Below the pieces are notes generated by a model. The model did not search any database, had not been told where the DNA came from, and saw only the letters and a list, made by a program, of their open reading frames with translations. From the NCBI GenBank assembly GCA_003152105.1, contig PLZJ01000002.1, positions 597,682-661,681 on the forward strand: a DNA stretch of 64,000 nt, in the 5' to 3' direction. Shown here piece by piece: positions 23,023 through 63,007 of the stretch. Numbering within the stretch: the stretch's first letter is position 1; each line of letters opens with the position of its first letter. This DNA comes from Candidatus Levyibacteriota bacterium (lineage in GTDB: Bacteria > Patescibacteriota > Microgenomatia > Levybacterales > UBA12049). The position numbers were made by a program, and so were the translations under genes.

Positions 23023-23052
23023 ACACGACTGCACTCTGATATAATCTGATGA

Positions 23053-24138
23053 GTGAAAGTAGCAATCGTTTATGATAGAGTGAATAAATGGGGAGGCGCA
23101 GAAAGAGTATTGCTTGCCTTACATAAACTATTTCCAAATGCCCCTCTTTACACATCTGTTCATAACAATACTAGCGCACCCTGGTCAAAAGTATTTACAG
23201 TAATTCCTTCTTTTTTACAAAACTTCCCTTTTGCAAAAAATAGTCATGAATTATATCCGCTGCTTATGCCAATAGCTTTTGAATCTTTTTCATTTGATAA
23301 ATATGATCTTGTGATATCTGTAACAAGTGAATCAGCAAAAGGTATAATAACAAAACCTCACACAAAACATATTTGCTACTTACTAACCCCAACAAGATAT
23401 TTGTGGAGTGGCTATAAAAACTATTTTAAAAATGAGTATGTAAGATTTCTTAGTTACCCATTGATATGGTATTTAAGAACGTGGGATATTATTGCATCTA
23501 AAAGACCAGATGCATATATTGCTATTTCAAAAGAAGTACAAAAGCGTATTAAAAAATATTACAATGAAGAATCATTGCTCTTGTATCCTCCAGTCTATTC
23601 AAATTTAGCAAAAATGAAAAACAAAATAAAAGGAGTAGAAAGTCAAAAGCCTTATTTTTTAATTGTATCAAGACTTGTGGATTATAAAAGAATAGATATT
23701 GCAATAGAAGCATGCAATGAACTTGCTCTTCCTCTTAAAATAGTAGGGATTGGTAGTTCTGAACAAGCACTTAGAAATATAGCTGGCTCAACAATAGAAT
23801 TTTTAGGTAGCTTGACTGACGATGAGCTTATTAGGTATTATAAGGGGTGCAAAGCACTGTTATTTCCTGGACATGAAGATTTTGGATTAACAGTAATTGA
23901 GGCTCATTTATTTGGAAAGCCAGTTATAGCATACAAAAAAGGTGGAGCTCTTGAAACCATCAATGAGGGTAAAACAGGAGAATTTTTTTACCCGCAGACA
24001 AAATCAGCTCTTATTGATACAATAAGATACTTTATGAGCAAGACTTACGATGCTCAAAGTTGCAAAAAACAAGCATCGCTATTTAATGAAAAAAAATTTA
24101 ATTCAGAACTTTTGCGCATAATTGGAGAATTTATATGA
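23053..24138 (+). CDS. glycosyltransferase family 4
   Basis: GTG start immediately after an in-frame TGA; KVAIVYDRVNKWGGAERVLLALHKLFPNAPLYT N-terminus; EDFGLTVIEAHLFG motif. Confidence 0.75.
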   Translation: MKVAIVYDRVNKWGGAERVLLALHKLFPNAPLYTSVHNNTSAPWSKVFTVIPSFLQNFPFAKNSHELYPLLMPIAFESFSFDKYDLVISVTSESAKGIITKPHTKHICYLLTPTRYLWSGYKNYFKNEYVRFLSYPLIWYLRTWDIIASKRPDAYIAISKEVQKRIKKYYNEESLLLYPPVYSNLAKMKNKIKGVESQKPYFLIVSRLVDYKRIDIAIEACNELALPLKIVGIGSSEQALRNIAGSTIEFLGSLTDDELIRYYKGCKALLFPGHEDFGLTVIEAHLFGKPVIAYKKGGALETINEGKTGEFFYPQTKSALIDTIRYFMSKTYDAQSCKKQASLFNEKKFNSELLRIIGEFI

Positions 24139-25217
24139 AAATAATTGTATTTGCAGGTGGTGTCGGAACAAGACTTTGGCCATTATCTAGAAAAAATACA
24201 CCAAAACAGTTTGAGAAAATTATTGGAGAAAGATCAACACTTCAAGAAGCGGTCTTTCGTCTTCAACCTACGTTTAAACCTGATGAAATTATTGTCGCAA
24301 CGGGAATAAGATATAAAGATATAGTCGAACGACAACTTCCAGAACTTCCAAAAGAAAACTTTTTATACGAACCTGAAATGAGAGACGTGGGTCCTGCAAT
24401 TGGAATGGCGACAATGATACTAAATAAAATGGATCCAGATGAACCAATGGCAATTATATGGAGTGATCATATGGTCAAAAATGTTGAAGCATTTCAAAAG
24501 GCGCTGGAATTAGCAAAGGAAAAAGTATTAGACAGTACAGCTAAGTTTATATTTATCGGTCAAAAGCCTAGATTTGCAAATCAAAATATTGGTTGGATTC
24601 ATTGTGGTGATAAAGTAGAGGAAGAAAATAATATTGCTTTATATAAATTTAAAAAACTAAAATACAGGCCAAAACTCTCACAGGCAGAAGATTTCTTCAA
24701 AGATGAAAGTTATGTTTGGAATTTTGGTTATTTTGTCACCACGCCTCGTTTTTTGAGTGAACTATATGAAGTGTATGTTCCAGAAATGTACGCTAAATTA
24801 TCTAAAATTCAAAGCGCCTATGATACTCCTTCGTTTGAAGAAACAGTTGCAAAAATATATCCAACGCTTGAAAAATTAAGTTTTGATGACGCAATTTTGG
24901 AAAAGCTTACTCCGAAGAATATTTACGTAATCTCTGTCGATGTAGGATGGAGTGATATAGGTGCTTGGGAAGCTTTAAAGGAAGCATTAAGTACCTCATC
25001 TGATGAAAATGTAACAAAAGGAAAAGTTATGGTTGAAGATAGTAAAGATACATTAGTATTTAATTATACTAATCAACTTCTGGTTGGCATTGATCTTTCT
25101 GAAATGCTTGTTATTGCAACTGATGATGTAGTACTTGTTTGCCCAAAAACTGCAGTACCAAAAATTAAAAAATTAGTTGAAAGTTTATCCGGTACCGAAA
25201 ATGAACATTTAACTTAG
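24135..25217 (+). CDS. mannose-1-phosphate guanylyltransferase (GDP-mannose pyrophosphorylase)
   Basis: MKIIVFAGGVGTRLWPLSRKNTPKQF nucleotidyltransferase N-terminus, 360 aa. Confidence 0.8.
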   Translation: MKIIVFAGGVGTRLWPLSRKNTPKQFEKIIGERSTLQEAVFRLQPTFKPDEIIVATGIRYKDIVERQLPELPKENFLYEPEMRDVGPAIGMATMILNKMDPDEPMAIIWSDHMVKNVEAFQKALELAKEKVLDSTAKFIFIGQKPRFANQNIGWIHCGDKVEEENNIALYKFKKLKYRPKLSQAEDFFKDESYVWNFGYFVTTPRFLSELYEVYVPEMYAKLSKIQSAYDTPSFEETVAKIYPTLEKLSFDDAILEKLTPKNIYVISVDVGWSDIGAWEALKEALSTSSDENVTKGKVMVEDSKDTLVFNYTNQLLVGIDLSEMLVIATDDVVLVCPKTAVPKIKKLVESLSGTENEHLT

Positions 25218-25230
25218 ATCTCTACTTTTT

Positions 25231-25896: not shown

Positions 25897-25906
25897 GGTC
25901 TTTTAT

Positions 25907-25936
25907 TTGACAAAATATATATACTTTAGCTATTAT
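25907..25936 (+). promoter_or_regulatory. promoter TTGACA-18-TATTAT ending 6 nt before ATG 25943
   Basis: Consensus -35 at 25907-25912, -10 at 25931-25936; no SD; implies a leaderless transcript. Confidence 0.4.
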
Positions 25937-25942
25937 TATTTC

Positions 25943-27925
25943 ATGTCAACTTTTGAAAAAATCGATTTTGCAAATTATGTAGGTAAAGAAAAAGCCCAAC
26001 CAACAGAAACAATGACTATGTCCAGAAGAAGATCAAAAAGAAAATTTGAAATACTAAAATCCAAAAAACTAGGAATTGCTCTTGGTATATTTCTTGTCAT
26101 TGTTGTGATTTTAGTTTTTGCGATCGTACTTCCTGCTAAAAAACTGTACAGCTCAGTAAAAGTCACTGAAGCTGATGCTAAACTCGCTGCATCTGCAATG
26201 AAGATGGAAAACATTGAACTTGCATCAACGTATCTTGGTACTACAAGAACAGATCTTATGCAAACGCAAGCAGATTTACATAAGATGTCATATTTACACT
26301 TTATACCAATTGCAAGTTGGTATTATAGTGATGGAGATCATTTAGTGAATGCAGGGTTTGATGGTTTAGATGCTGTTGATACTATTGTAAATGCAATTAA
26401 ACCAAATGCGGATCTTCTTGGATTAAAAGGAAAAGGAAGTTTTGTAGGTGGATCTGCTGAGCAGCGAATTTCTACAGCTGTTGCAACACTTGGAACAGTC
26501 ACACCCAAAATAGATGATATAGCTAAATCTCTTGAAGCAGCTAAAGTTGAAATAGATGCCGTAGACCTAGGGCATTACCCAACAATCTTAGGTGGAGGGA
26601 AAATAAATACACAGCTTACGAGCGCAAAGAAACTATTAGACGAAGGATCTGTATTTATATCAGATGCACAACCACTTATTAAAGTTTTGCCTTCTCTTCT
26701 TGGTGAACCTGATCAAAAAAAGTATTTAGTTATATTCCAAAACGACAAAGAACTTAGACCTACTGGAGGTTTTATTACTGCTTACGCAGTGTTTGATATA
26801 AATAAGGGAGTTATAAGCGTTGAGCAATCAAGTGATATTTATGAACTTGATGCCACAATTTCAAATAAACCTCAGGCACCTACGCCAATATTAAAATATT
26901 TACCAAATGTATATGTATGGAATTTAAGAGATACAAACCTATCTCCTGATTTTATAGTTTCAATGCAAGAATTTAAGAAATTATATGCATTAAGTAGTGG
27001 TCCAAAAGTGGATGGAATTATTGCTCTTGATACGAGTATGCTCGTCTCAACAATGGATATTTTAGGCGATATTCAAACAGAAGGAACTACCTTTACTACC
27101 CAAACTGATGCAAGATGTGAATGTCCACAAGTAATTTATGCACTTGAGCAGGCAGACCAGCCAGTAAATTATATTAAGTCAAATAGAAAAGGATTAATAG
27201 GAGATTTAATGTACTCCATTTTGCACAAAGCGCTTTCATCTTCTCCAAAGTTATATTGGGGACCATTATTTCAAAGTGCAATTGCACAAATTGGACAAAA
27301 ACATTTATTATTTGATTTAAACGATCCAAACGCGCAACAAGGGCTTGAAGCACTAAACACAGCTGGTCAAATAATACCATTTAATGGTGATTATCTACAC
27401 GTAAATGATACAAATTTTGCCAGTGGTAAAGCAAACTTATATGTCCAAGAAGCAGTTACGCAAGATTATCAGTTACAAAGTGATGGATCAATTAACAAAA
27501 CAATTACGATTAAATATACAAATAATCATCCACCTTCAGATTGTAGTTTGGCATCAGGCGGTTTATGTTTAAATACTACGTATCGGGATTGGAATAGAAT
27601 ATATGTTCCAGAAGGAAGTCAACTACTCAGTAGTACTGGATCAGAAGTAAAAGTTACCTCTTATAATGATCTTGGTAAAACTGTTTTCGAGAGTTTTTTC
27701 TCTGTAAGACCTCTTGGAGAAAAAACATTTACAGTTTCATATAAATTACCATTTAAATTAAAAGACAAATCAGACTTGCCACTACTTATTCAAAAACAGC
27801 CGGGAACAAATGGTAATATTAATGCCATAACAATAAATGGAAGTCCATTTACTGCCGGAGTAAATAATCAGAACGTACAAACTTTTCCTCTTCAAACCGA
27901 TCAACAAATTCAAGTTAAATTCTAA
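25943..27925 (+). CDS. DUF4012 domain membrane-anchored protein
   Basis: N-terminal TM helix. Core YLVIFQNDKELRPTGGFITAYAVFDINKG resembles DUF4012. Start taken at ATG 25943 (track uses TTG 25907, which lies in the promoter). Confidence 0.55.
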   Translation: MSTFEKIDFANYVGKEKAQPTETMTMSRRRSKRKFEILKSKKLGIALGIFLVIVVILVFAIVLPAKKLYSSVKVTEADAKLAASAMKMENIELASTYLGTTRTDLMQTQADLHKMSYLHFIPIASWYYSDGDHLVNAGFDGLDAVDTIVNAIKPNADLLGLKGKGSFVGGSAEQRISTAVATLGTVTPKIDDIAKSLEAAKVEIDAVDLGHYPTILGGGKINTQLTSAKKLLDEGSVFISDAQPLIKVLPSLLGEPDQKKYLVIFQNDKELRPTGGFITAYAVFDINKGVISVEQSSDIYELDATISNKPQAPTPILKYLPNVYVWNLRDTNLSPDFIVSMQEFKKLYALSSGPKVDGIIALDTSMLVSTMDILGDIQTEGTTFTTQTDARCECPQVIYALEQADQPVNYIKSNRKGLIGDLMYSILHKALSSSPKLYWGPLFQSAIAQIGQKHLLFDLNDPNAQQGLEALNTAGQIIPFNGDYLHVNDTNFASGKANLYVQEAVTQDYQLQSDGSINKTITIKYTNNHPPSDCSLASGGLCLNTTYRDWNRIYVPEGSQLLSSTGSEVKVTSYNDLGKTVFESFFSVRPLGEKTFTVSYKLPFKLKDKSDLPLLIQKQPGTNGNINAITINGSPFTAGVNNQNVQTFPLQTDQQIQVKF

Positions 27926-27928: not shown

Positions 27929-27957
27929 TTGTAACTTACCCATAAATTGTATATACT
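27929..27957 (+). promoter_or_regulatory. promoter TTGTAA-17-TATACT ending 6 nt before recO ATG
   Basis: Hexamers at 27929-27934 and 27952-27957. Confidence 0.45.
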
Positions 27958-27963
27958 AATACT

Positions 27964-28533
27964 ATGCGTTCTGTCAAAACTGAAGGAATTGTTATAAAAC
28001 GCAAAAACTACGGAGAAGCTGATAGATTAGTAACTGTTTTTACAAAAGATTTTGGCAAAATTACGGTTAAGGCAGGTGGAGTAAGACGAATAACAAGCAG
28101 AAGGTCCTCACATATTGAACTTCTTAATTTATCTGAAATTTATTTATATAAAGGTCGATCATATTTTACTTTAACAGAAGCGATTGTAATGAAAAACTTC
28201 TTAGCTATTAAAGATAACTTAGTAACTATTGGTTTTGCATATCATATTTGTGAGCTTATTGACGGATTATGCGCAGAGAACCAAGAAAATGAAAAAGTAT
28301 TTCATCTGCTAAAGAATACGCTTTCAAAACTCGTTGCAATAACTGAAAGTGGAAAAGAAGACGATTTAGTTTCGACAGTTCATGCATTCGAAGTAGATTT
28401 ATTAATAATGCTTGGATTTTGGCATGTACCGGAAGGGATTCCAACGAAGCGTGTAAATATACACTCAATTATCGAAAATTTATTAGAAAGAAAATTAAAA
28501 AGCAAACAAATAATTCTACAAATAAAAAATTAA
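27964..28533 (+). CDS. recO: DNA repair protein RecO (short form, 189 aa)
   Basis: N-terminus MRSVKTEGIVIKRKNYGEADRLVTVFTKDFGKI typical of the RecO OB-fold domain. Confidence 0.6.
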   Translation: MRSVKTEGIVIKRKNYGEADRLVTVFTKDFGKITVKAGGVRRITSRRSSHIELLNLSEIYLYKGRSYFTLTEAIVMKNFLAIKDNLVTIGFAYHICELIDGLCAENQENEKVFHLLKNTLSKLVAITESGKEDDLVSTVHAFEVDLLIMLGFWHVPEGIPTKRVNIHSIIENLLERKLKSKQIILQIKN

Positions 28534-28578
28534 ACCCAACTTTTTTAGAAATTTGCGTTGTGTAGTATACTATAGTCT

Positions 28579-29826
28579 ATGAAAAATAAACGAATTGCAG
28601 TTATTGCGTACCATACCTGTCCGCTTTCTGATGAAGGTCAAGAAATTGGTGGGATGAATATTTATGTCTTAGAAATGTCTAAAATGCTCGCCAAAAAAGG
28701 CTTTATCATTGATATTTTTACAAGATGTCAGGACAATAAGAGTGAAAAAATAGTTGAAGTTTGTCCAAATCTTCGTGTTATTCATCTTGTTGCAGGAAAG
28801 TCCGCACCAATTGAGAAACGTAAATTACGTCCTTTGATTCCTGCATTTATTGTAAGTTTTGATAAATTTGTAAATGAGGAAAAACTTCATTACGATATTG
28901 TTGATTGTCACTATTACCTTTCGGGTATTATAGGGCTTGCTATCAAAGCTACATATAAAATACCACTTTTTATGAAATATCATACGCTTGGCATTATGAA
29001 GAATTTAGTGGCAAGAGATGAAGATGAGACTGAAGATATTTATCGAATTAAAACTGAAATGCATCTTGCAAGACAATCTGATAAGATTTTTGCAAATAGT
29101 CGAACTGAAGAAGCATATATTGAGTCACTTTATGGGGCACGTAAAGATGCGATTATTATTCTATCCCCAGGAGTGAATGTTGAATTATTTCATCCATATG
29201 ATAAGGTTACTGCAAAAAAAGAAGTAGGGGCACCACTAGAGAAGAAAATGATTTTATTCGTAGGACGACCTGAGCCATTAAAAGGAATTGATACGCTGAT
29301 GTATGCAGTAAAGATACTTATTGAAAAAGATCCTTTGCTCTCATTATCTCTTTGGATCGTTGGTGGAATTGTGGGTAAGAATATCGATACTTGGTCAAAA
29401 GAACTTAAAAAACTTGAGAGTTTACGCAGAACATTGTCAATTAGCTCGAACGTGCATTTTATAGGTAGAAAAAGTCAGGAAGAATTGCCAAGTTTTTATA
29501 ATGCAGCTGATATTGTTGTGTTGCCTTCACACTATGAATCCTTTGGTATTACTGCGCTTGAAGCAATGGCATGCGGTACACCTGTTGTAACAACTGATGT
29601 AACGGGAGTAGCTGATTTATTTGATAAAAAACACTCTCCACTTATCACTTCTGCACACAATCCTATTCGACTTGCGCAAAAACTACATAATTTGTTAACT
29701 GACAAAAAGATGTATGAAAAATCTAGTAAAGAGGTTTTTGAAAAAGTACAAGATTTAAGTTGGAGTAAAATTGCGGACAAATATATATCGGTTGTAAATA
29801 AATGTACAACGCGTAGTGTTTTGTAG
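28579..29826 (+). CDS. glycosyltransferase family 4 (MshA / glycogen-synthase-like)
   Basis: MKNKRIAVIAYHTCPLSDEGQEIGGMNIYV N-terminus; ESFGITALEAMACGTPVV motif. Confidence 0.75.
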   Translation: MKNKRIAVIAYHTCPLSDEGQEIGGMNIYVLEMSKMLAKKGFIIDIFTRCQDNKSEKIVEVCPNLRVIHLVAGKSAPIEKRKLRPLIPAFIVSFDKFVNEEKLHYDIVDCHYYLSGIIGLAIKATYKIPLFMKYHTLGIMKNLVARDEDETEDIYRIKTEMHLARQSDKIFANSRTEEAYIESLYGARKDAIIILSPGVNVELFHPYDKVTAKKEVGAPLEKKMILFVGRPEPLKGIDTLMYAVKILIEKDPLLSLSLWIVGGIVGKNIDTWSKELKKLESLRRTLSISSNVHFIGRKSQEELPSFYNAADIVVLPSHYESFGITALEAMACGTPVVTTDVTGVADLFDKKHSPLITSAHNPIRLAQKLHNLLTDKKMYEKSSKEVFEKVQDLSWSKIADKYISVVNKCTTRSVL

Positions 29827-29847: not shown

Positions 29848-30015
29848 TTATTTCCTCATTTTATCAGCAACTACGGCAATTACCATTATTAAAACGCCAA
29901 GCCACCATATCGTTAGAGCTGGAATTAAATAAGCGAGAAAGAGTCCAAGTCCTAAACCAAATAAGCTGTGCATGAAGACATGGCCAGTAAAGCAAGCTTT
30001 CATTTTACTATTCAT
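29848..30015 (-). CDS. small membrane protein (55 aa), not in ORF track
   Basis: ATG at 30015-30013 preceded by a strong SD GGAGGTGAT 7 nt upstream. Product MNSKMKACFTGHVFMHSLFGLGLGLFLAYLIPALTIWWLGVLIMVIAVVADKMRK is hydrophobic. Confidence 0.4.
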   Translation of the reverse strand: MNSKMKACFTGHVFMHSLFGLGLGLFLAYLIPALTIWWLGVLIMVIAVVADKMRK

Positions 30016-30127
30016 TGATTATCACCTCCTTTCATTTTTAGCATGACACGTACAGTTTATCTATGCAAGAGGTATTTGGATTCTAATACCCATGCGTATT
30101 TGCTTTCATTTTTGCTATAATACTTTT

Positions 30128-31498
30128 ATGAACGAAGATGCTAATTTATTAGATAAAGTTGTTGCACTTGCGAAGCGAAGAGGTTTTGCTTACCCTTCCT
30201 CAGAAATTTACGGCGGCCTTGCAAATTCATGGGATTTTGGTCCGTTAGGAACGCTTCTTAAAAATAATATTCGAGATGCATGGTGGAATGATTTTGTGCT
30301 TAAAAGAGATGATATGGTTGGTATTGATGCATCAATTTTTTTAAGTCCTGACGTGTGGAATGCATCAGGTCATGTGGCAGGGTTTACAGATGCGCTTATT
30401 GAATGTAAACAGTGCCATACTCGTACTAGAGCAGATCATCTAATTGAAGATGCTTTGCCAGATATTAAAGTTGAAGGTTTAGAAGTAGATGAGCTTGAAA
30501 AAATTATCAATGAGAAGGAAATTCATTGTCCGAATTGTGGCAAGTTTGATTGGACAACAATTAGAAAATTTAACTTATTATTTGAAACAAGTATTGGCAT
30601 TGTAGAAGAAAATAAATCAAAAGCATATTTGAGGGGTGAAATTGCACAAGGTATTTTTCTTAATTTTAAAAATGTATTAAATACTACTCGTGTTAAAATT
30701 CCTTTTGGTATAGCACAGCAAGGGAAAGCATTTAGAAACGAAATTACGATGGGACAATTTGTTCACAGGACGCTTGAGTTTGATTTAATGGAATTTGAAT
30801 ATTTTATACACCCTGATAATTGGGAAAAGGTGTATGCGTATTGGAAAGAAGAAATGATGCAATGGGCGCTGTCTCTTGGTGTAAAAAAAGAACATTTGCG
30901 ATGGAGAGAACATGAAGAACATGAAAGATCTCATTATTCGAAAAAAACAATGGATATTGAATATAAATATTCCTTTGGGTGGAAAGAAATTTTTGGTTTG
31001 GCATATAGAACGGACTTTGATTTAGCTAATCATTCAAAACATTCGGGCAAAGACTTGAAATATTCAGACCTACTCACGGGAGAAACATATATGCCACACG
31101 TTATTGAGCCAACATTTGGATTATCTCGATTAGTAGGTATAGTGCTCATGGATGCCTATAATGAAGAAGAAAACAGAACTGTTCTTAAGATTTCTCCGAA
31201 ACTTGCGCCTTATAAAGTTGCTGTATTTCCTCTGCTTTCAAATAAGGAAGAATTGGTAAGTAAAGCAAAAAGTGTGTACGAGCAAATAAGACAAGAATTT
31301 GTTAGTTATTATGATGATAGAGGCAATATTGGAAAGCGATATTTATATCAAGATGAAATAGGAACACCATATTGTGTGACAGTAGATTTCCAAACACTAG
31401 AAGATAATTGCGTTACGATAAGAGATAGAGATACGACACAACAAGAAAGAGTCCCAATTGATCAGCTAATAAATATAATCAAAAAGAAACTGCTATAG
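30128..31498 (+). CDS. glyQS: glycine--tRNA ligase, alpha2 (dimeric) type
   Basis: VVALAKRRGFAYPSSEIYGGLANSWDFGPLG and class II synthetase motifs. Start at ATG 30128, 6 nt after TATAAT 30116-30121. Confidence 0.85.
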   Translation: MNEDANLLDKVVALAKRRGFAYPSSEIYGGLANSWDFGPLGTLLKNNIRDAWWNDFVLKRDDMVGIDASIFLSPDVWNASGHVAGFTDALIECKQCHTRTRADHLIEDALPDIKVEGLEVDELEKIINEKEIHCPNCGKFDWTTIRKFNLLFETSIGIVEENKSKAYLRGEIAQGIFLNFKNVLNTTRVKIPFGIAQQGKAFRNEITMGQFVHRTLEFDLMEFEYFIHPDNWEKVYAYWKEEMMQWALSLGVKKEHLRWREHEEHERSHYSKKTMDIEYKYSFGWKEIFGLAYRTDFDLANHSKHSGKDLKYSDLLTGETYMPHVIEPTFGLSRLVGIVLMDAYNEEENRTVLKISPKLAPYKVAVFPLLSNKEELVSKAKSVYEQIRQEFVSYYDDRGNIGKRYLYQDEIGTPYCVTVDFQTLEDNCVTIRDRDTTQQERVPIDQLINIIKKKLL

Positions 31499-31540
31499 AT
31501 TCTTGACAAAGCATACCTCTATATGAGTATAATTTAGCCA

Positions 31541-32095
31541 GTGAATAAATTATTACAAGACAAGAAGCTTTTAGGATTAGTTGGCGTAGCAGTTGTCTTA
31601 ATTTTAGGAGGCGCATATTTTATTATCGCAAATGGAAAAGCGAAGCAAGAAGAATCTTCACCATCAGCGCAAATCGAAGTAATTCATAATCTTAATCCTT
31701 CAGATCTTGGGCTTTCAATAACACCTCATATTGGCAATAAATGTAGTACGACTCCAACACCGTATAATGAAGTAAAGTTTAGTATGGCAAAAACACAAGA
31801 TATTAAACATGTGTCATGGCAATTTACGTATAATGCAGACATTCCTGCAACTGAGCAGATTGCTGACAGTGGTAATGGTCAAGTTACTCAACAATTAGGA
31901 TCCGATGAAGGTCAGGATGTTAGTAGTGGGAAGCCATATGACTCACGATATGAGTTTTTAGGAACATGCTCAAAAAATGTGTGTCGATGTGATACGGGGG
32001 TCAAAGCAATTGATCTTGTATTAAAAATAACAAAGAATGACAATTCAGTTTATGAAGCGAAAGATTCTGTAGATCTAAGCACTTACACTCAATAA
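31541..32095 (+). CDS. hypothetical membrane-anchored / secreted protein
   Basis: GTG start 7 nt after TATAAT (31528-31533, with TTGACA at 31503-31508); N-terminal TM helix; Cys-containing C-terminal region; no recognisable domain. Confidence 0.4.
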   Translation: MNKLLQDKKLLGLVGVAVVLILGGAYFIIANGKAKQEESSPSAQIEVIHNLNPSDLGLSITPHIGNKCSTTPTPYNEVKFSMAKTQDIKHVSWQFTYNADIPATEQIADSGNGQVTQQLGSDEGQDVSSGKPYDSRYEFLGTCSKNVCRCDTGVKAIDLVLKITKNDNSVYEAKDSVDLSTYTQ

Positions 32096-32135: not shown

Positions 32136-32164
32136 TTGACACATTGTGAAATTTCTGTGAAAAT
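32136..32164 (+). promoter_or_regulatory. mraZ promoter TTGACA-17-(TGt)GAAAAT
   Basis: Consensus -35 at 32136-32141 and an extended but weak -10 at 32156-32164. Confidence 0.45.
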
Positions 32165-32170
32165 ACTATC

Positions 32171-32200
32171 ACGTGGTTTAAAGTGGTGAAAAGTGGTGAA
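32171..32200 (+). promoter_or_regulatory. MraZ operator-like direct repeats (3 x GTGGT at 10-bp spacing)
   Basis: acGTGGTtta / aaGTGGTgaa / aaGTGGTgaa lie immediately downstream of the -10 and upstream of mraZ, which has SD GGAG. Confidence 0.55.
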
Positions 32201-32220
32201 AACAAATAAACGGAGATATT

Positions 32221-36607: not shown

Positions 36608-36665
36608 AAAGTGTATTATATATCATTTGTAGAGAAAACGTAGGAAAAACGGTATAATACGTTGT

Positions 36666-46890: not shown

Positions 46891-46919
46891 TTGAACTTAT
46901 ACGATCATAAAGGTATAAT
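46891..46919 (+). promoter_or_regulatory. promoter TTGAAC-17-TATAAT ending 8 nt before mraY ATG
   Basis: Hexamers at 46891-46896 and 46914-46919. Confidence 0.45.
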
Positions 46920-46927
46920 AAAAAAAT

Positions 46928-47938: not shown

Positions 47939-47988
47939 TCTCCTCATTTTCTATACAAAAACCTCGAATACTGATACTATATTCATAT

Positions 47989-49065: not shown

Positions 49066-49091
49066 ATGATACAATATGAAGATAAAAGTCT

Positions 49092-53191: not shown

Positions 53192-53282
53192 TACAGTTTC
53201 TATATACATTTAAACCCTGCAAAATAAATAGGAGTTGCTTTATATAACAAATCTATTTCGTAAATTTTGATATACTTATACT

Positions 53283-54371
53283 ATGGCAGAATCTAAAAGT
53301 GAACAAGGAAGAAGTCCAAGAATAGATATTGTTGGCGGTGGAGTATCAGGATTAAACACAGGTATTGAAGCATTAAAAAGTGGAAAACAAGTAAGAATAT
53401 TTGAAGCTGAACCATACAATCCGACTTTAGCTCAAAATCCCGAGCAACAGAGAATCATCCGTAGGGCATCTGATGCTGGATCTGCACAGTGGTATCCATA
53501 CGTTGAAGGAGGTCTTAATAAAGGAGAGCAAGAAGATCAACTTCAGTGGATGGAGGATGCATTAGATAGTTATTTAGAAAGAGAAATTGTTGAAGGATAC
53601 AGTTCAGCAATGGCAAGACGAAGAAATTTTGAATTAATGAGGGATGCAGAGCCTATGCCAGATTATTTAAGAGGGATGCTCGAAAAGTTTGGCCCTGTAA
53701 AAGAATTTGGAGATGTTCCTAAGAATCCTCTTGAGTATTCTTATGGATATGATTTTACAACTCTTGCAATTAATTCACCTGCTATGCTAACAGCTTTAAG
53801 ACAGGAATTCAATGAGTTAGGAGGAAATTTTGTATCCAAAAAAATAGAATCTGCTGATGAATTTTATGAATTGCCTGGAGATGTATTAGTAAATTGTACA
53901 GGCCTTGGTTCATCTGAATTATTCCCCGATACAGGCTAAGAGGCTGTAAAGGGACATATGCTATTTTATAAAAATCCTGGAATAGATACTATTGTAAGCG
54001 CTGAGGATTTAATAGTTCTTCCTAGATCAGATAATTTGCTAGTTGTAGGAGCTTTATATCTTCATGAAGGAGACTATAGTACTGATGATCCAACTATTCC
54101 AGAAAGACAAGATATTCTTAAACGAATTAATCATATGATAGGAATTGATTTAAAGGAATTTGATCAACTAAAAGAGCAATTAAAAAAAGCAGAATATATG
54201 GGAGAAACTTCTGGTTTTCGTCCGTACAGAAAAGCAGGGACTTTAGTCACTGCAACTTCAGGACCAAATGACAAGATAGTTGTACACAATGTAGGACATG
54301 GGGGAATGGGATGGACACTAGCTGGAACCGGAAAAGCAGCACTTAGAGAGATTAATAAAGCATTGAAATAA
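53283..54371 (+). pseudogene. FAD-dependent oxidoreductase, DAO family (glycine / D-amino-acid oxidase-like), interrupted by in-frame TAA at 53937-53939
   Basis: IDIVGGGVSGLNTG dinucleotide-binding N-terminus in ORF 53283..53939; the C-terminal GHGGMGWTLAGTGKA motif is in the same frame after the stop (53958..54371). Read-through gives PDTG*EAVKGHMLF, matching the conserved PxKGQxL region. Confidence 0.5.
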
Positions 54372-54452: not shown

Positions 54453-54481
54453 TTGACTTTACTTTGATAAAGTAATATAAT
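54453..54481 (+). promoter_or_regulatory. consensus sigma70 promoter TTGACT-17-TATAAT
   Basis: Hexamers at 54453-54458 and 54476-54481, 25 nt upstream of the YerC-like gene. Confidence 0.55.
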
Positions 54482-54506
54482 AAAACGTACTTTATCTAAC
54501 TAAAGT

Positions 54507-54827
54507 ATGAAATATAATAAAAATATAAGTCAACTATATAAAGCAATACTTTCATTAAAAAACGAAGACGAATCAAGGAGATTCTTTCGTGACTTACTTA
54601 CTGAACCTGAAATCAAAGAATTTGCATCCAGATGGCAAGTTGCTAATATGCTTGAAAATAATATTAATTACGATATTATTACTAAAAAAACTGGTATGAG
54701 TTCAACAACGATTGCAAGAATAAGTAAATGGTTAAATAAAGGTTATGGAGGATATAAGCTTATGATAAAGAGATTAAATGAAGAAAAAAATAATCATCAT
54801 AACACCACTAATATGGCGGTGTTTTAA
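54507..54827 (+). CDS. YerC/YecD family TrpR-like DNA-binding protein
   Basis: LLTEPEIKEFASRWQVANMLENNINYDIITKKTGMSSTTIARISKWLNKG matches the YerC/YecD pattern. Confidence 0.55.
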   Translation: MKYNKNISQLYKAILSLKNEDESRRFFRDLLTEPEIKEFASRWQVANMLENNINYDIITKKTGMSSTTIARISKWLNKGYGGYKLMIKRLNEEKNNHHNTTNMAVF

Positions 54828-54853
54828 TTTGTTTACATAGTACATTATTAATA

Positions 54854-55707: not shown

Positions 55708-55723
55708 AATGTATAATACGAGT

Positions 55724-56245
55724 ATGAAAAAGTTACAAATAGGCATAATAGGTTCAGCAGGTGTTGAAGAATATCCATTTTCTAAGCCAAGCAATAAACT
55801 TTATGAACTTGCATATGAAATAGGCACATTAATCGCAAAAAATGGATCTATATTAATTTGTGGAGGAAAAGGGGGAATTATGGAGGAGGCTTGTCGTGGA
55901 GCTAAAGAAAATGGAGGAATTACTGTTGGGGTAATAGGAGGAAATAATAGAGGAGAATCTAATAAGTATGTTGATGTTGAAGTGGTAAGTGGTATAACTA
56001 ATTATGCAGAAGAAGGGTTAATAATATCTATGTCTGACGGCATAATTGCACTTGGTGGTGGAGCCGGTACTTTACAAGAATTAGCCATGGCATACAGGAG
56101 TAATAAAAAAGTAGCAACAATTAAAAATACGAAAGGGTGGTCAATGAATCTTTCAAATCAGTTTTTGGATGAAAGGAATATAACAAAAATTAAATTGTGT
56201 GATTCTCCGAAATCTGCTGTATCATATATCCTAAAAAATATTTGA
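55724..56245 (+). CDS. LOG / TIGR00725 (SLOG) family Rossmann-fold nucleotide-binding protein
   Basis: KKLQIGIIGSAG, GGKGGIMEEACRGA and ALGGGAGTLQELA motifs of LOG-like phosphoribohydrolases. Start placed at ATG 55724, 6 nt after TATAAT 55712-55717. Confidence 0.65.
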   Translation: MKKLQIGIIGSAGVEEYPFSKPSNKLYELAYEIGTLIAKNGSILICGGKGGIMEEACRGAKENGGITVGVIGGNNRGESNKYVDVEVVSGITNYAEEGLIISMSDGIIALGGGAGTLQELAMAYRSNKKVATIKNTKGWSMNLSNQFLDERNITKIKLCDSPKSAVSYILKNI

Positions 56246-56252: not shown

Positions 56253-57482
56253 TTAAATATTAGAGCTGATTTCTTTACTAATGGATATGGCTGTTACCGG
56301 AGACTGTGTAAATCCTCCTGCTGAATGTCCAACAGCAATGATAATTGGTAATTTATTTTTGTGATTCACCACTAGCGTGGGAACTCCTGTTGGAGTAGCT
56401 GGTCTTATGCAATAAGATGTTGCTTTTATCGTTGAATCGGGAAGCCATTGTTTTACTTCTTTAAGCATATCGTCCATTATTGGTTTTGCAAGTAACGAAG
56501 CTTCATTATGAGGTCTACTTCCAACAAATCCATACCCTCCACTAAGAAGAAGACTTGTTTTACTTGGAGTAATATTGATGTAATTAACTGGTTCAGGTCC
56601 ATATATTTTACATGCTACTTTTATACCAGGATTATCCACTTCAACCCAACAACCAATAACACCTGCAAGTAGTACGTTAAACTTGCTTAAAAGTTGAGTA
56701 GTATCCAAAGATACACCACTACAACAAACAAGAGCATCTGCTTTTAGATTCTCGAAGTAATAATCAGAACTTAGCAAGTGTTTATCTGAAATTGTTGTAT
56801 CCCAAATAAAAGTCGTACCCAATTTACTCAAATATTCAACAATGTTATGACATATTGATTTAGCATAATAAGCACTACCAAACAAAGTAAAATATCCAAA
56901 ACCTCCAAGCATTGAGAGCCTATTATTAAATGGTAAAAGTGTGTCTGGTAAAACTTGGTTTTCACATAATCTTACTCTTTTATCAAGAGAATGTTCATAT
57001 GTAAATTCTGAAAGTAAATCATCTTTGCTCCTGCAAATTATCGGCATTACAGTGTCGTGTTTAAAAGGTTGTAGAAAGTCATATTTATTTCCTAATAGTT
57101 CCCACATTCGAATCCCTTCTTTATTTAAATTTATTACTACGGAAGTATTAAGATCATGTGATTTTGTGTCTTGTGATGTTTCCTTAAATTTTGAAATCCA
57201 TTCCACTTCTAGCTTATTTAGTTTGTTTTTTGGTATGCAAAGCCAGCCTTTTTCTGAAGAATTTTTCGTAATTAGTTCGAAGCGGTGACTCGACGTCCAG
57301 GGGGCTGTTTCAGTATAAGAAATGTGTCTTGCATCAAAACCACTATATGTTGCACCGTGTGTATGACTATTATGTTTTGGGTTTGGACCAGCATCAATGA
57401 CCGTAATTTTATATTTTTTTGAGAGTTCTAAGGCTGTCATTAGTCCTGTTATACCTGCTCCAATAATTGCAATGTGTTTCAT
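56253..57482 (-). CDS. FAD-dependent oxidoreductase, DAO family
   Basis: MKHIAIIGAGITGLMTALEL N-terminus and C-terminal IIIAVGHSAGGFTQSPVTA. ATG preceded by TGaTATAAT (57497-57489, minus strand) 6 nt upstream. Confidence 0.6.
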   Translation of the reverse strand: MKHIAIIGAGITGLMTALELSKKYKITVIDAGPNPKHNSHTHGATYSGFDARHISYTETAPWTSSHRFELITKNSSEKGWLCIPKNKLNKLEVEWISKFKETSQDTKSHDLNTSVVINLNKEGIRMWELLGNKYDFLQPFKHDTVMPIICRSKDDLLSEFTYEHSLDKRVRLCENQVLPDTLLPFNNRLSMLGGFGYFTLFGSAYYAKSICHNIVEYLSKLGTTFIWDTTISDKHLLSSDYYFENLKADALVCCSGVSLDTTQLLSKFNVLLAGVIGCWVEVDNPGIKVACKIYGPEPVNYINITPSKTSLLLSGGYGFVGSRPHNEASLLAKPIMDDMLKEVKQWLPDSTIKATSYCIRPATPTGVPTLVVNHKNKLPIIIAVGHSAGGFTQSPVTAISISKEISSNI

Positions 57483-57589
57483 AGTGAGATTATATCAAAT
57501 AACCAATATTTTCCTTTCGTACAATAGTTCTAATTGTCTCGAAAAGCACAGAATAGATCTCCGTACTTTGTTACGATATAATGCAATGT

Positions 57590-58228
57590 ATGGATATAAC
57601 TGAAAAAACAGCAATTCTTAGAAAGTTCTCAATATTTGGATCGTTATCAGATCAAGCCTTTTTAGATGTTGGAAGTAAGACGCACGAGATTGCAATAGAT
57701 GAGGGAAAAGTATTTATTAGACAAGGAGATACTGTAGGTCCTATTTATTTTATTTATAATGGCTTAGCAAAGATTTATAGATTAAATGAAAATGGAATGG
57801 TTGCTAATTTGGGATTTGCAGGAGAATTTGAAATAGTTGGAGATATGGCCTTTATTACTAGCCAAAACAGATCTGCATCGGTTGAGGCAATGCGTAAAGT
57901 TGACGCACTTGTCCTCTCTCCAGAAGATTTTAAAAATATATTATATGCTTATCCGGAAATCTCGATACAATTAATGCAAATTTTTTCTCAAAGACTTCGC
58001 AAAAGTAATGCTTCCTCTGAAGAAATGATGTTTCAAAACCTTACCCATAGAACCTGGATAGCGCTTGAAACATTAAGTAAATATTTTCCAGAAAAAAGCA
58101 TAACGCTTTCTCATGAAGAATTAGCAGAAATAGTCGGAGCAACAAGAGCACGAACAACAGAGGCGCTACATCAGTTACAAAAAGAGAAAAAAATACAGCT
58201 TTCTCATAGAAATATCCACATATTATAA
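57590..58228 (+). CDS. Crp/Fnr family transcriptional regulator
   Basis: cNMP-binding domain (FIRQGDTVGPIYFIYNGLAKIYR) plus C-terminal HTH (LSHEELAEIVGATRARTTEALHQL). Start at ATG 57590, 7 nt after TATAAT 57577-57582. Confidence 0.75.
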   Translation: MDITEKTAILRKFSIFGSLSDQAFLDVGSKTHEIAIDEGKVFIRQGDTVGPIYFIYNGLAKIYRLNENGMVANLGFAGEFEIVGDMAFITSQNRSASVEAMRKVDALVLSPEDFKNILYAYPEISIQLMQIFSQRLRKSNASSEEMMFQNLTHRTWIALETLSKYFPEKSITLSHEELAEIVGATRARTTEALHQLQKEKKIQLSHRNIHIL

Positions 58229-58230
58229 GT

Positions 58231-58244
58231 GTTCTTTAAAGAAC
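58231..58244. promoter_or_regulatory. perfect 14-bp palindrome GTTCTTTAAAGAAC upstream of the HD-domain gene promoter
   Basis: Read directly. Centre about 41.5 nt upstream of the predicted start of transcription (TATACT at 58267-58272). Confidence 0.3.
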
Positions 58245-58280
58245 TGAATAATATCTTTACTCCATTTATACTCTTCTTGT

Positions 58281-59204
58281 ATGATAAGCGAACAATATTT
58301 TTCAACTGAACGAAGTGGAGAAAGTCAACTATATGTTGAGATTGGAATAAACAATGCATTAGCGCATATAGCGGAAAACTTTGAACATAGCTCTAAGGGG
58401 TTAGAAAACTTACCTTTTCATAACACAGATCACACAAGGCAAGTTATGAGAAGAACCCAATTAATTCTCTCAACTATAAGTTCAGCTGATCCTACGCTTG
58501 TTTCTTCACAGGATATGCTTCTTGGTCAACTTGCAGCAGCTTTTCATGATTCAGAACAAAAATGGAAAAATAAAAAAGTGAAAACAGGAAATCAAGATAC
58601 ATTAATAAGAGAGCGCTATGGTGTAGGAAATGAAGTCATAAGCTGTGCTAATGCGGTAAACTATATGGTACATGTAAATGAAACAGAAGGTAAAGATATA
58701 TTTTCAAAAGATGATATTGAAACGGTTGTTGAGGCAATACTGGTTACAATACCTGTATTTGATCTAAGACATCAAACAGTTGCGCAACCAAATTTAAGCA
58801 ATAGGACCTCACTTGTAGCAAGGGCAGTAGCCTTAGCTGATCTTGGGTCTGCTGGGCTTGACGGGCTAGAAATGGTAAAGGAAGATAGTAAAAAATTATT
58901 TCGAGAAGAAAACTTAGATATTACCATACGACTTTCTGAAGATATTCCTTTAACAAAAGATGAGGAAAGCTTCTATAAAGATAGATATCTTAAATGGGTA
59001 AGTACGCAATATCCATTCGCAAAAGGAAGAAAAGACCTCTTAACTACTGAATTGGATGGAATTCCTCAACACGTCTTGCCTTATGTAGAAAGGCTTTTTA
59101 ATAAATTTGATGAAACTCTAGCTGGTTTAGAAAATATAACTGCTTCATATGCAGCACTCGAACCAAAAGAATTACTTGTTGAAGTGGGATATCATTTACA
59201 ATAA
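58281..59204 (+). CDS. putative HD-domain metal-dependent phosphohydrolase
   Basis: FHNTDHTRQV and AAAFHDSEQ His/Asp motifs; weak assignment. Confidence 0.35.
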   Translation: MISEQYFSTERSGESQLYVEIGINNALAHIAENFEHSSKGLENLPFHNTDHTRQVMRRTQLILSTISSADPTLVSSQDMLLGQLAAAFHDSEQKWKNKKVKTGNQDTLIRERYGVGNEVISCANAVNYMVHVNETEGKDIFSKDDIETVVEAILVTIPVFDLRHQTVAQPNLSNRTSLVARAVALADLGSAGLDGLEMVKEDSKKLFREENLDITIRLSEDIPLTKDEESFYKDRYLKWVSTQYPFAKGRKDLLTTELDGIPQHVLPYVERLFNKFDETLAGLENITASYAALEPKELLVEVGYHLQ

Positions 59205-61181: not shown

Positions 61182-61270
61182 AAAAACATCACACTATCGT
61201 AACATTCTAGTTTGGATAAATAAATATGCAATATAACTTTCTTTTTTGAAACCAATAAATTGTAGTAACC

Positions 61271-61299
61271 TTGACAATAGTCTCATTTGAGCCTACAAT
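61271..61299 (+). promoter_or_regulatory. consensus promoter TTGACA-17-TACAAT for the hexokinase-CYTH gene
   Basis: Hexamers at 61271-61276 and 61294-61299, 10 nt before ATG 61310 (the track start 61271 is the TTG inside the -35). Confidence 0.5.
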
Positions 61300-61309
61300 A
61301 AGCTCTTCT

Positions 61310-63007
61310 ATGTCTGCACTTCTCGAAAATGAAGCAAGTAGTAGTAGCATGGAGAAATTAGCCCCAGTTCCTTCTTCGTTGTTGTATTCAATAGATGATC
61401 TTAAGCGCTTTTCAGGTAATTTCCGAAATGAATTAGCAAGAGCTTGTAATGGTCAAGAAAGTAGTCTTTCAAATAACGCACATGACATCCCTTCGTTTTC
61501 TCATGTTAAAGAGGGTGAATATTTTCAGGCTTTTGTGGTTGGAGGAACAAATTATAAAACCGCCTTAATGCAAAGAACTGGTGAAGGTGCTAATTTGCTT
61601 GATGTAAGTAGATGTGTAATAGGACCTTCGGCAACTGATGTTGATATTATTACACTTATTACAGCTAGTATTGATCCAAGGTCAACAGTAGTAGGTTTAA
61701 ATTTTGCATTTCCTATGAAGCCGGTTGATAGAGACGGTGTATTAGATGGCATACTACTTGGTGCTACTAAGGAACGAAAGTTTAAAAAATATATTGGCCA
61801 AGAGATAGGAAAAGTAATTGAAGATGAAATAGTTAGGATTCATGGTCGTAAAATCAAAGTTACGGTTGCAAATGATACAGCTTGCCTTGCGATTGCTGGA
61901 ATAGAAGGAGATAATGCGAATAAAATTGCCGCTGGAGTTGTTGGAACTGGTTTAAATTTTGCAATTAGCCATCAAGGTAAAATCATAAATCTTGAATCAG
62001 CAAATTTTGATAAATTTGAACAAACTGAAACGGGTAGGCAAATAAACAGAGAATCAAAAGCAAAAAATAAAGCTCTCTTTGAAAAAGAAGTATCAGCTGG
62101 TTATCTTTATTTACATCTTAAAAAGATCTTAGAATCAGAAGGAGAGGACGCCTCGCATATCACAAGTACTGAAGATGTAAGTATCATCGCCTCAGCGAAT
62201 GATGGAAGTAAGGCATCTGAATACGCAAATACACTTCTTGAGAGATCTGCATCACTTGTTGCTGTTCAGATTGTTGCAATTTACGAATTCATGGAGCAAC
62301 CACAAATAACAATGGTTATGGAAGGCAGTTTATTTACAAAGTCTCCTCGATATAGAAGTCATGTTGAAAGATATCTTAAAGAACTTGGAGTACCAGAAAA
62401 TGGAGTTATGTTCCAAAGTTATCAAGAAAGTGATCTATTAGGTGCTGCCAAACTTGCCGCAATTGAAGAAACTACCATGTCTTTTCCAGAAACAGTTCCA
62501 ATGGAAGAAATTGAGAGTCGATTCTTACTTTCAGATATTCCCGAAGATTTACAAAGTGCAATACGATGTGGAAAAATAGAACAAATGCAGCAAGGATATT
62601 TATCAAGTTCAGAAAGAATTAGAAAAGTAATATATGAAGGGGGATTAACGCTTTACACGATTGTTGATAAAAAACCAGTACCGGGAAAACCAGATTATGT
62701 TAAGGATGATGAACCAATGGTGATTGGAAGAGATGAGTTTATGAGAAAATGGAAATTAATTAAAGGGTATCCAATTTTCAAAACCAGATTTCTTCTCGAT
62801 AATTCCGCGGTTGAGCCTCATAAGGGAAAAATTGTTATTGATAGTTTTGAAGGAAAATTTAATGATATAAATCTAATTGAAGTAGAGTTCGAATCATTAG
62901 AAGATTGTGACAGTTTTGTTCCATTGTCATGGTTTGGACCAGAAGTAACGCAAACTGTCTCAAGTAGTAAACTAGCGCATAACAATGCTCGAGTACCTCA
63001 ATTGTAA
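61310..63007 (+). CDS. eukaryote-type hexokinase (PF00349/PF03727-like) fused to a C-terminal CYTH triphosphate-tunnel domain
   Basis: Hexokinase motifs in order: AFVVGGTNYK, LNFAFPM, AAGVVGTGLNFAI, INLESANFDKF, VMEGSLFTKSPRYRSHVERYL, LLGAAKLAA. C-terminal EEIESRFLL (ExExK/R) and IVIDSFEGKFNDINLIEVEFES are CYTH hallmarks. Confidence 0.75.
   Translation: MSALLENEASSSSMEKLAPVPSSLLYSIDDLKRFSGNFRNELARACNGQESSLSNNAHDIPSFSHVKEGEYFQAFVVGGTNYKTALMQRTGEGANLLDVSRCVIGPSATDVDIITLITASIDPRSTVVGLNFAFPMKPVDRDGVLDGILLGATKERKFKKYIGQEIGKVIEDEIVRIHGRKIKVTVANDTACLAIAGIEGDNANKIAAGVVGTGLNFAISHQGKIINLESANFDKFEQTETGRQINRESKAKNKALFEKEVSAGYLYLHLKKILESEGEDASHITSTEDVSIIASANDGSKASEYANTLLERSASLVAVQIVAIYEFMEQPQITMVMEGSLFTKSPRYRSHVERYLKELGVPENGVMFQSYQESDLLGAAKLAAIEETTMSFPETVPMEEIESRFLLSDIPEDLQSAIRCGKIEQMQQGYLSSSERIRKVIYEGGLTLYTIVDKKPVPGKPDYVKDDEPMVIGRDEFMRKWKLIKGYPIFKTRFLLDNSAVEPHKGKIVIDSFEGKFNDINLIEVEFESLEDCDSFVPLSWFGPEVTQTVSSSKLAHNNARVPQL

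Follow-up and report, generated by a model that had tools for sequence, protein, structure and literature searches.

Promoter-like -10 boxes apparently positioned for leaderless mRNAs at operon heads in a 64-kb region of a Levyibacteriota genome

The window analyzed here is a stretch of 64,000 nucleotides (nt) of contig PLZJ01000002.1 from Candidatus Levyibacteriota bacterium, a Microgenomates-like member of the Patescibacteria, or Candidate Phyla Radiation (CPR), with a reduced genome of 33% GC. The window has a GC content of 29-36% and is densely coding, mostly on the plus strand, and a tRNA search and an Rfam search of it gave no matches. The closest loci to its glycyl-tRNA synthetase (GlyRS, encoded by glyS) are 65-73% identical and are found in metagenome-assembled genomes (MAGs) of Levyibacteria/Roizmanbacteria-type Microgenomates. 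Pfam confirms the gene names proposed in an initial annotation of this DNA, which were recO, glycyl-tRNA synthetase, Mur ligases, NUDIX, mraY, SLOG/LOG, a Crp-family regulator and a hexokinase-family protein, and it additionally names ftsW, murG, ftsZ, a TrpR-family gene and a DUF4012 protein. The element in question is a TATAAT-like hexamer that stands directly before the start codon of genes at operon heads, for which the initial annotation listed 15 cases, all said to be free of a Shine-Dalgarno (SD) sequence and interpreted as a sign of pervasive leaderless transcription. All 15 hexamers and their start codons, 13 ATG and two GTG, lie where they had been placed (Table 1).

The gap is counted here as the nucleotides separating hexamer and start codon. 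Six of the 15 listed cases have a gap of 6 nt, six more a gap of 7 nt and two a gap of 8 nt, and in one (61310) it is 10 nt. None of GGAG, GAGG or AGGA occurs within any of these 6-10 nt spacers, in agreement with the reported lack of SD sequences. The list is correct and also incomplete, as two more candidates were missed, at ftsW (47989) and on the minus strand at 35829. By our own tally, leaderless-type heads amount to about 16/25 of the heads, or about two thirds, in the part of the window from 23 to 64 kb. Among candidate starts, the box was found at TTG in only 1/14.

Table 1. Start-proximal signals in the window. Gaps run from the 3' end of the -10 hexamer to the start codon; loci outside the window are designated in the text by L numbers.
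Gene or feature	Span	Strand	Upstream signal	Gap (nt)	Start	Support or remark
GT4 glycosyltransferase	23037..23055	+	extended -10 TGaTATAAT 23037-23045	7	GTG 23053	Pfam GT1
DUF4012 protein	25907..25945	+	-35 TTGACA 25907-25912, 18-bp spacer, -10 TATTAT 25931-25936	6	ATG 25943	11/12 promoter match
recO	27929..27966	+	-35-like TTGTAA, 17 bp, -10 TATACT 27952-27957	6	ATG 27964	Pfam RecO_N
GT4 glycosyltransferase	28544..28581	+	-35-like TTTAGA, 16 bp, -10 TATACT 28566-28571	7	ATG 28579	Pfam; in-frame stop 6 nt upstream
Glycyl-tRNA synthetase (glyS; glyQS in the initial annotation)	30113..30130	+	extended -10 TGcTATAAT 30113-30121	6	ATG 30128	orthologs
184-aa membrane-anchored protein	31503..31543	+	-35 TTGACA 31503-31508, 19-bp spacer, -10 TATAAT 31528-31533	7	GTG 31541	forced start
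NUDIX hydrolase	36605..36620	-	-10 TATAAT 36620-36615; half of a 58-bp divergent promoter pair	7	ATG 36607	Pfam NUDIX from residue 10
Mur ligase (murE-like)	36630..36668	+	-35-like TAGAGA, 17 bp, -10 TATAAT 36653-36658	7	ATG 36666	orthologs
mraY	46891..46930	+	-35 TTGAAC, 17 bp, -10 TATAAT 46914-46919	8	ATG 46928	in-frame stop 9 nt upstream; Pfam Glycos_transf_4
ftsW (additional to the 15)	47972..47991	+	extended -10 TGaTACTAT	8	ATG 47989	Pfam FTSW_RODA_SPOVE from residue 11
Flavin adenine dinucleotide (FAD) oxidoreductase (DAO family)	53268..53285	+	extended -10 TGaTATACT 53268-53276	6	ATG 53283	in-frame stop 15 nt upstream
SLOG/LOG-family protein	55712..55726	+	-10 TATAAT directly after the upstream gene's stop	6	ATG 55724	Pfam LDcluster4
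FAD oxidoreductase	57480..57497	-	extended -10 TGaTATAAT 57497-57489	6	ATG 57482	Pfam DAO
Crp/Fnr-family regulator	57577..57592	+	-10 TATAAT 57577-57582	7	ATG 57590	homolog N-termini
Conserved 307-aa protein	58231..58283	+	14-bp dyad GTTCTTTAAAGAAC 58231-58244, 22 bp, -10 TATACT 58267-58272	8	ATG 58281	conserved layout
Hexokinase-family protein	61271..61312	+	-35 TTGACA, 17 bp, -10 TACAAT 61294-61299	10	ATG 61310	11/12 promoter match; public gene call likewise 565 aa
109-aa protein (additional candidate)	35827..35867	-	-35 TTATCA, 17 bp, TGaTATAAT	9	ATG 35829	promoter within the 3' end of the upstream gene
mraZ (leadered, SD-led)	32136..32223	+	TTGACA-17-TGtGAAAAT 32136-32164; GTGGT at 32173, 32183 and 32193; GGAG 32212-32215		ATG 32221	
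55-aa hydrophobic membrane open reading frame (29848-30015)	30013..30029	-	perfect SD GGAGGTGA, 6 nt before the start		ATG 30015	
TrpR-family gene (leadered, no SD)	54453..54509	+	strong promoter TTGACT-17-TATAAT	25	ATG 54507	Pfam
murG (no SD, short leader of ~10 nt)	49067..49094	+	TGaTACAAT	16	ATG 49092	Pfam

Positional enrichment was measured with a blind start rule, in which open reading frames (ORFs) of at least 100 amino acids (aa) were called mechanically, with the box having no influence, and the first ATG of each was taken as its start. A box was defined as TATAAT with at most one mismatch and with T1, A2 and T6 fixed, and leading genes were separated from internal genes by the upstream gap. 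In the window, 10/27 operon-leading genes have a box at a gap of 5-9 nt, compared to 3/25 internal genes and to a mean of 1.9 leading genes in the other 5-nt offset windows (binomial p = 6.7e-6), and 500 dinucleotide shuffles of the window gave a mean of 1.88 and a maximum of 7. The box profile has its maximum at gaps of 6, 7 and 8 nt. The same enrichment is seen in 16 Microgenomates-like relatives, where 24/77 leading genes in the loci around glyS are boxed and 5.1 are expected (p = 1e-10). In addition, previously unseen DNA of the same genome (L083) conformed to prediction, with TATACT at a gap of 6 nt (16935) and TATAAT at a gap of 7 nt from the second ATG (18908). In the AT-rich but SD-led Staphylococcus phage K (50 kb, 30% GC), which was put through the identical pipeline as a negative control, the SD peak is strong and the box is present at gaps of 3-12 nt in 0/44 leading genes. 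The initial annotation had named an absence of enrichment of the -10/start-codon spacing over background as a result that would speak against its proposal, and on this point the window, the relatives and the negative control all came out in its favor.

The enrichment is specific to the word as well as to its position. In a scan of 5-mers, ATATA, ATACT, TATAC and TATAA rank at the top at leading genes, and for the stop-free words TATACT and ATACT the enrichment is confined to leading genes. Among the A3T3 permutations, TATAAT alone is concentrated at gaps of 5-9 nt in the window, although this is based on few occurrences and is less pronounced in the relatives. An artefact arising from the in-frame TAA within TATAAT was also considered and rejected, as this would bias the gaps toward 2, 5 and 8 nt, and the peak is at 6-7 nt and is common to the stop-free TATACT.

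Most of the hexamers are accompanied by another element of a promoter. Among 16 window cases, a -35 match of at least 4/6 at a distance of 16-19 bp is present in 8/16 (50%), versus 15% at control spacings, and a TGn extension in 5/16 (31%), versus a background of 5.3%. The extension is present in four of the five cases whose -35 element is poor, so that TGn offsets weak -35 elements in the classical manner. One or the other is found in 12/16 and neither in 4/16. Perfect TTGACA at 17-19 bp occurs in three cases (25943, 31541 and 61310), and the 11/12 promoter matches in the 40 kb that were scanned, three in number, are all directly upstream of gene starts. The claim that several of the boxes have good -35 elements or TGn extensions is therefore borne out statistically, while the spacing of 17-18 bp that went with it does not hold at 31541, where it is 19 bp. 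Since both companions exceed background, the hexamers can be regarded as parts of sigma-70-type promoters. Across 49 species the transcription start is centered 7 bp downstream of the -10 element (PMC12641261), and the gap of 6-8 nt matches both the -10-to-start distance measured in bacteria and the Pribnow-to-start distance of the group C genomes of GeneMarkS-2.

The argument depends on the start codons, and the choice made in the initial annotation is backed at 14/15 of the listed genes, both GTG cases included, by Pfam domain limits, by the N-termini of orthologs or by in-frame stops, the last being located 3-15 nt upstream at six starts. For the two DAO oxidoreductases, LOG and NUDIX, the Pfam profile begins within the first 3-16 residues: DAO profile position 4 falls at residue 16 of the 53283 protein and position 2 at residue 4 of the 57482 protein, in which GxGxxG comprises residues 8-13, and LDcluster4 position 1 falls at residue 3 of the SLOG/LOG protein, for which an independent public gene call likewise gives 173 aa. 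In recO, positions 1-80 of the RecO_N profile align with residues 1-79, and relatives have a like geometry (TATACT with a gap of 7 nt in L001, TATAAT with a gap of 6 nt in L006). Orthologs of the murE-like ligase align from residue 1-2, with TATAAT at a gap of 8 nt in L019, and the L019 ortholog of the DUF4012 protein has its ATG aligned with 25943 and an in-frame stop upstream.

Both GTG starts are forced by their reading frames. GTG 23053 has a TGA in frame immediately 5' and the next in-frame start is 9 codons in, and orthologs of this glycosyltransferase have an M[KR]xAIVYD N-terminus at the same position, with ATG. GTG 31541 is the only in-frame start from a TAG at -6 to codon 82. In the L019 ortholog the N-terminus is MNRKLL, which matches (M)NKLL, and a TACAAT precedes its start. 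The initial annotation considered GTG to be unusual for leaderless initiation, a view that does not hold for leaderless-rich bacteria, as leaderless GTG is robust in mycobacteria, where it is as good as ATG, and is poor in E. coli (PMC4633059). The exception among the 15 is 58281, where there is no Pfam match, an in-frame stop is reached only 36 nt upstream and the start is placed by promoter geometry only.

Some ATGs overlap or abut the -10 box itself, as in TATAATG. These are 30092, 55709 (abutting), 57581 (overlapping) and L083:18899, and such codons would be off the predicted transcript yet lengthen the ORF. The upstream ATGs at 30092 and 55709 are probably spurious, and the 12-residue extension from 30092 is absent in the GlyRS orthologs. 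For the Crp-like gene, the start at 57590 (212 aa) is right and the public call at 57581 (215 aa) probably wrong: several of nine homologs are 212 aa in length and start with M-x-I-x-[ED]-K, aligned with the MDITEK of 57590, and the 'MQC' extension is found only in the longer call. Box-overlapping ATGs may be a systematic source of start-annotation error in such genomes, with spurious ATGs at -10 boxes giving wrong N-termini when genes are called in CPR MAGs.

The glyS gene provides the clearest view of the box in orthologs. A strong box is present 5-9 nt before the gene's own ATG in 11/16 glyS orthologs and at 0/160 control positions. The ortholog ATGs are at three different offsets relative to the window start and the flanks have diverged, such that the box appears to move with the start codon. 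Two relatives of 44% GC have AAGGAG 6-9 nt before the glyS ATG in place of a -10 box (L005:540-560 and L006:6560-6580), and glyS would thus be leaderless in some related genomes and SD-led in others.

A separate indication of the transcription start comes from the gene at 58281. The homologs of the Crp-like gene are followed by the same ~300-aa gene as in the window, and the layout upstream of the latter, a dyad, 22 nt, an xAxACT hexamer, 6-8 nt and the ATG, is kept in four loci of different genomes, the window, L121, L118 and L117, the remaining upstream sequence having diverged. The dyad is identical in the window and L121 (L121:1959-1972), and the window contains no other perfect copy. Its center is at 58237.5, and G58279, the seventh nucleotide after the -10 box, follows 41.5 bp further downstream; the dyad overlaps a poor -35 element. 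In class II Crp/Fnr promoters the regulator site is centered at -41.5, a rule reportedly due to Busby and Ebright. By this independent measure the transcription start would be placed at most 2 nt from the 58281 start codon, and the dyad at 58231-58244 is likely the binding site of the adjacent Crp/Fnr-family regulator, as predicted from its class II position. The arrangement resembles class II Crp/Fnr-dependent promoters in having a 14-bp dyad next to a Crp-family gene and -41.5 from the predicted start. It differs from them in that the half-site, GTTCT/AGAAC, agrees with neither consensus, that of CRP being TGTGA and that of FNR TTGAT, and in that the predicted 58281 message would have either no leader or one of 2 nt. 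Judging by the geometry of this promoter, the regulon of the Crp-like protein would consist of a single target. The Crp-like gene itself has a box in its orthologs in L121 (TATACT, gap of 7 nt) and L118 (TATTCT, gap of 8 nt).

Taken with the enrichment, the -35 and TGn statistics and the conservation at glyS, the geometry at 58281 supports the leaderless interpretation put forward in the initial annotation, and we infer the transcription starts and the mode of translation with good confidence: the boxes are in all likelihood -10 elements of sigma-70-type promoters set for leaderless mRNAs at operon heads. The hexamers would be recognized by the housekeeping sigma-70-type RNA polymerase, which would start about 7 nt after the -10 box, either on the first base (A or G) of the start codon or 1-3 nt before it. 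The resulting mRNA would have no 5' leader and no SD, and the ribosome with initiator tRNA would bind the 5'-terminal AUG or GUG directly, as in Actinobacteria and Deinococcus. Internal genes and genes with regulated leaders, such as mraZ, would rely on SD pairing or translational coupling.

Several observations weigh against this interpretation. Strong -10-like hexamers number 1020 on both strands of the 64 kb, or about one per 125 nt of strand, and a generic sigma-70 scan gave promoter-like matches not above those of dinucleotide shuffles (89 vs 85.6; 77 vs 88.5), so that only position relative to start codons is informative. About 7% of genes would be boxed at a gap of 5-9 nt by chance, and about 2/16 of the cases may be accidental. 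Several promoters (36607, 55724 and 57590) have neither a -35 element nor TGn, and of all those in the set the NUDIX promoter at 36607 has the weakest promoter support. At 61310, with its gap of 10 nt, a purine is absent at positions 4-10, and a leader of 3-4 nt is as probable as none; the hexokinase-family gene possibly has a leader of 0-4 nt. In the Crp orthologs of L117 and L120, TATAAT abuts ATGATG (gap of 0 or 3 nt), which is a poor fit. The pyrimidine at -1 expected of a pyrimidine-purine start (YR rule) is present as T or C in all 13 ATG cases, but also at 73-85% of all starts, and does not discriminate. Finally, transcription units are mostly 30-70 bp apart, and the 40 kb from 23000 to 63000 contains one convincing intrinsic terminator, at 54853-54868 (ACCGCCAATAGGCGGT then T7), terminator-like matches there being overall at shuffle level. 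The genes must therefore also be on read-through transcripts, where they would be leadered without an SD.

This last point leads to the possibility that the promoters are real and the messages are not truly leaderless, having leaders of 4-15 nt or being mainly read-through polycistronic mRNA that is translated in an SD-independent manner (by coupling, 70S scanning or an A/U-rich standby), with the promoters merely supplementing expression. Apart from the read-through that the short gaps and near absence of terminators imply, it draws on the gap of 10 nt at 61310, on the SD-less leaders of 10-25 nt at the heads 49092, 54507 and 61181, and on the many internal genes that are also SD-less, such that SD-independent internal initiation must exist. 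We nevertheless consider it unlikely, as leadered messages would provide no selection for distance and the gaps are sharply peaked at 6-8 nt, which puts the start site on the start codon. Moreover, the box tracks the ATG in orthologs, and from the 58281 dyad transcription would be expected to begin 0-2 nt ahead of the ATG.

A/U-rich elements can enhance initiation, and the word is located where a ribosome binding site would be. Instead of being a promoter element, it could thus act in translation on mRNAs that do have a leader, for instance as an A/U-rich or S1-binding site or as another non-SD motif like that of the GeneMarkS-2 group B genomes, and the 5-mers TATAA and ATATA are indeed enriched before internal genes of the relatives too. 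This enrichment, however, is confounded by the TAA stops of the upstream genes; the stop-free words TATACT and ATACT are not enriched there. A translational signal would also not account for the specificity of the hexamer (TAnnnT) over general A/T richness, for the -35 or TGn elements that accompany the box at the correct spacings, or for the fact that the box is mostly missing at internal genes, which use SDs, and we regard this explanation as very improbable. Chance in an AT-rich genome together with selective choice of starts by the initial annotation, for which one could cite the abundance of such hexamers, the shuffle-level generic matches and the five of 15 starts (25943, 30128, 55724, 57590 and 61310) that are not the first of their ORF, is rejected as scarcely credible by the enrichment under the blind first-ATG rule, its replication in the relatives, its absence from phage K, the glyS orthologs and the independent support for those non-first starts.

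The remaining genes of the window use other signals. SD sequences include GGAGG at 13898, AGGAGG at 41601, GGAGGA at 1636, GGAG at 24135 and 32221, and GGAGGTGA at 30015 on the minus strand, and such strong SDs on other genes indicate that the ribosome still uses the canonical anti-SD. The statement in the initial annotation that genes other than operon heads overlap or carry SDs is correct as to the canonical SDs, that at 30015 included, and many internal genes are SD-less and overlap or abut the upstream gene. It is incorrect as to mraZ, which is not internal to an operon but is a leadered first gene. The three GTGGT repeats upstream of mraZ have an exact 10-bp period. Direct repeats at 10-bp spacing are known as MraZ operators in E. 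coli and Mollicutes, and the repeats look like a candidate MraZ operator, which would explain why mraZ keeps its leader. Among the heads, leaders of about 10-20 nt without an SD occur at murG, the TrpR-like gene and 61181 (minus strand), and 45267, 50232, ftsZ and 54892 have no recognizable signal.

Three other features of the window may be mentioned. The 55-aa ORF at 29848-30015, which has the strongest SD in the window, appears to be unannotated and is within the 265-bp gap upstream of glyS. The entire 58-bp intergenic region between the NUDIX and Mur ligase genes (36608-36665) consists of two back-to-back core promoters with crossing -35 regions and would be a minimal bidirectional leaderless promoter. 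The first 23 kb (1-23000), together with the 10 kb upstream in the source contig (L081), form one long glycosyltransferase/polysaccharide gene array in which the genes overlap or are tightly packed and start-site promoter boxes are almost absent; after 23 kb there are many small transcription units, unlike in this array.

The architecture proposed here is a known one. In group C genomes, as defined by GeneMarkS-2, a Pribnow box is located 6-8 nt from the starts of first genes and SDs precede the others. Actinobacteria (90%) and Deinococcus-Thermus (97%) typically belong to this group, and Proteobacteria and Firmicutes rarely do (PMC6028130). Between 25 and 50% of operons in group C are predicted to be leaderless, and in D. 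deserti this is so for 167/262 mapped genes (PMC6028130). The window has all of the group C features that can be read from DNA, namely the box at 6-8 nt, no SD in the spacer, SDs elsewhere and an ATG or GTG start. The non-SD motifs of group B, on the other hand, precede first and internal genes alike (PMC6028130), a pattern not found here given the 10/27 leading and 3/25 internal genes with a box.

The likeness to group C organisms such as Mycobacterium, Streptomyces and D. deserti therefore includes the box at first genes, SDs elsewhere and both ATG and GTG as predicted 5'-terminal starts. The differences are that the host is a reduced CPR bacterium of 33% GC rather than a GC-rich actinobacterium or Deinococcus, that the -10 element, often with a TGn extension, is near the full consensus (TATAAT/TATACT) and not a loose TANNNT, and that the predicted local fraction of about 16/25 heads ranks with the highest known in bacteria. 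The messages would also resemble those of lambda cI (from PRM) and Tn1721 tetR in E. coli, which begin at the A of the AUG, lack an SD and use 70S-type initiation. Leaderless mRNAs in E. coli are rare and weakly translated, with GUG at <10% (PMC4633059), whereas here they would be the majority mode of operon heads and include two GTG starts. Archaeal leaderless genes (GeneMarkS-2 group D) are similar in that first genes are leaderless and internal genes have SDs, but their TATA/BRE elements are about 26 nt upstream, unlike the bacterial hexamer at about -10 with its -35 or TGn.

The spread of the box among CPR bacteria was examined with the same blind test, using about 20 kb per genome and MAG taxon labels some of which are unreliable. 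Boxed leading genes number 28/120 in Saccharibacteria-labelled loci (background of 7), 13/54 in Paceibacteria/Nomurabacteria loci (background of 5) and 5/37 in Uhrbacteria loci (background of 0.3), compared with 4/103 in Peregrinibacteria loci (background of 7.1) and 1/25 in non-CPR loci (background of 2). In the Peregrinibacteria/Peribacteria-labelled loci (L020, L021, L023-L030 and L038), neither the -10 box nor a GGAG-type SD is enriched before first ATGs. These loci have C-rich, CCTCC-like words 4-7 nt upstream, such as caCCTCCCaaacATG and aaCCCTCCatcccATG, which are in the anti-SD sense and are not SDs; CCTC occurs 11 times near starts and five times far from them (~7-fold, p = 1e-4, uncorrected), and some of these are orthologous pairs. 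Other comparisons gave no information. The mraY, ftsW and murG orthologs in the Saccharibacteria loci are too distant, and a metagenome scan with the oxidoreductase 56253-57482, carried out for footprinting of the 53-63 kb promoters, gave N-terminal Rossmann-motif matches only and no orthologs. None of the Logan contigs L082, L084 and L085 begins at a predicted start site, and these contigs were treated as ordinary metagenome fragments that hold no transcript-end information.

A literature search located no paper linking 'leaderless' with CPR, Patescibacteria, Saccharibacteria, Microgenomates or Parcubacteria, the GeneMarkS-2 supplementary tables and the Nanosynbacter lyticus start-site set (PMID 35975994) being outside its reach, and some CPR genome may possibly have been classified as group C before. 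What is described here would accordingly be a known leaderless architecture in a lineage for which no prior report was located. The chances are about even, judging from these promoter patterns, that leaderless initiation is the default for operon heads across much of the Patescibacteria/CPR. If this is true, the CPR would be the third large bacterial lineage, and the first AT-rich and genome-reduced one, with a pervasive leaderless transcriptome. CPR ribosomes are pared down, with a short bS1 and with bS21 often lost (PMC9297842), and the leaderless mode may be linked to such ribosomes, or it may be an ancestral Terrabacteria trait common to Actinobacteria and Deinococcus-Thermus. In practical terms, the predicted native promoters are compact, at 35-40 bp including the start codon, and would be usable for the emerging genetic systems of Patescibacteria. 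If confirmed, these results add a deep lineage that is AT-rich and genome-reduced to those with pervasive leaderless translation, and bear both on the ancestry of leaderless initiation and on how initiation is carried out by reduced ribosomes.

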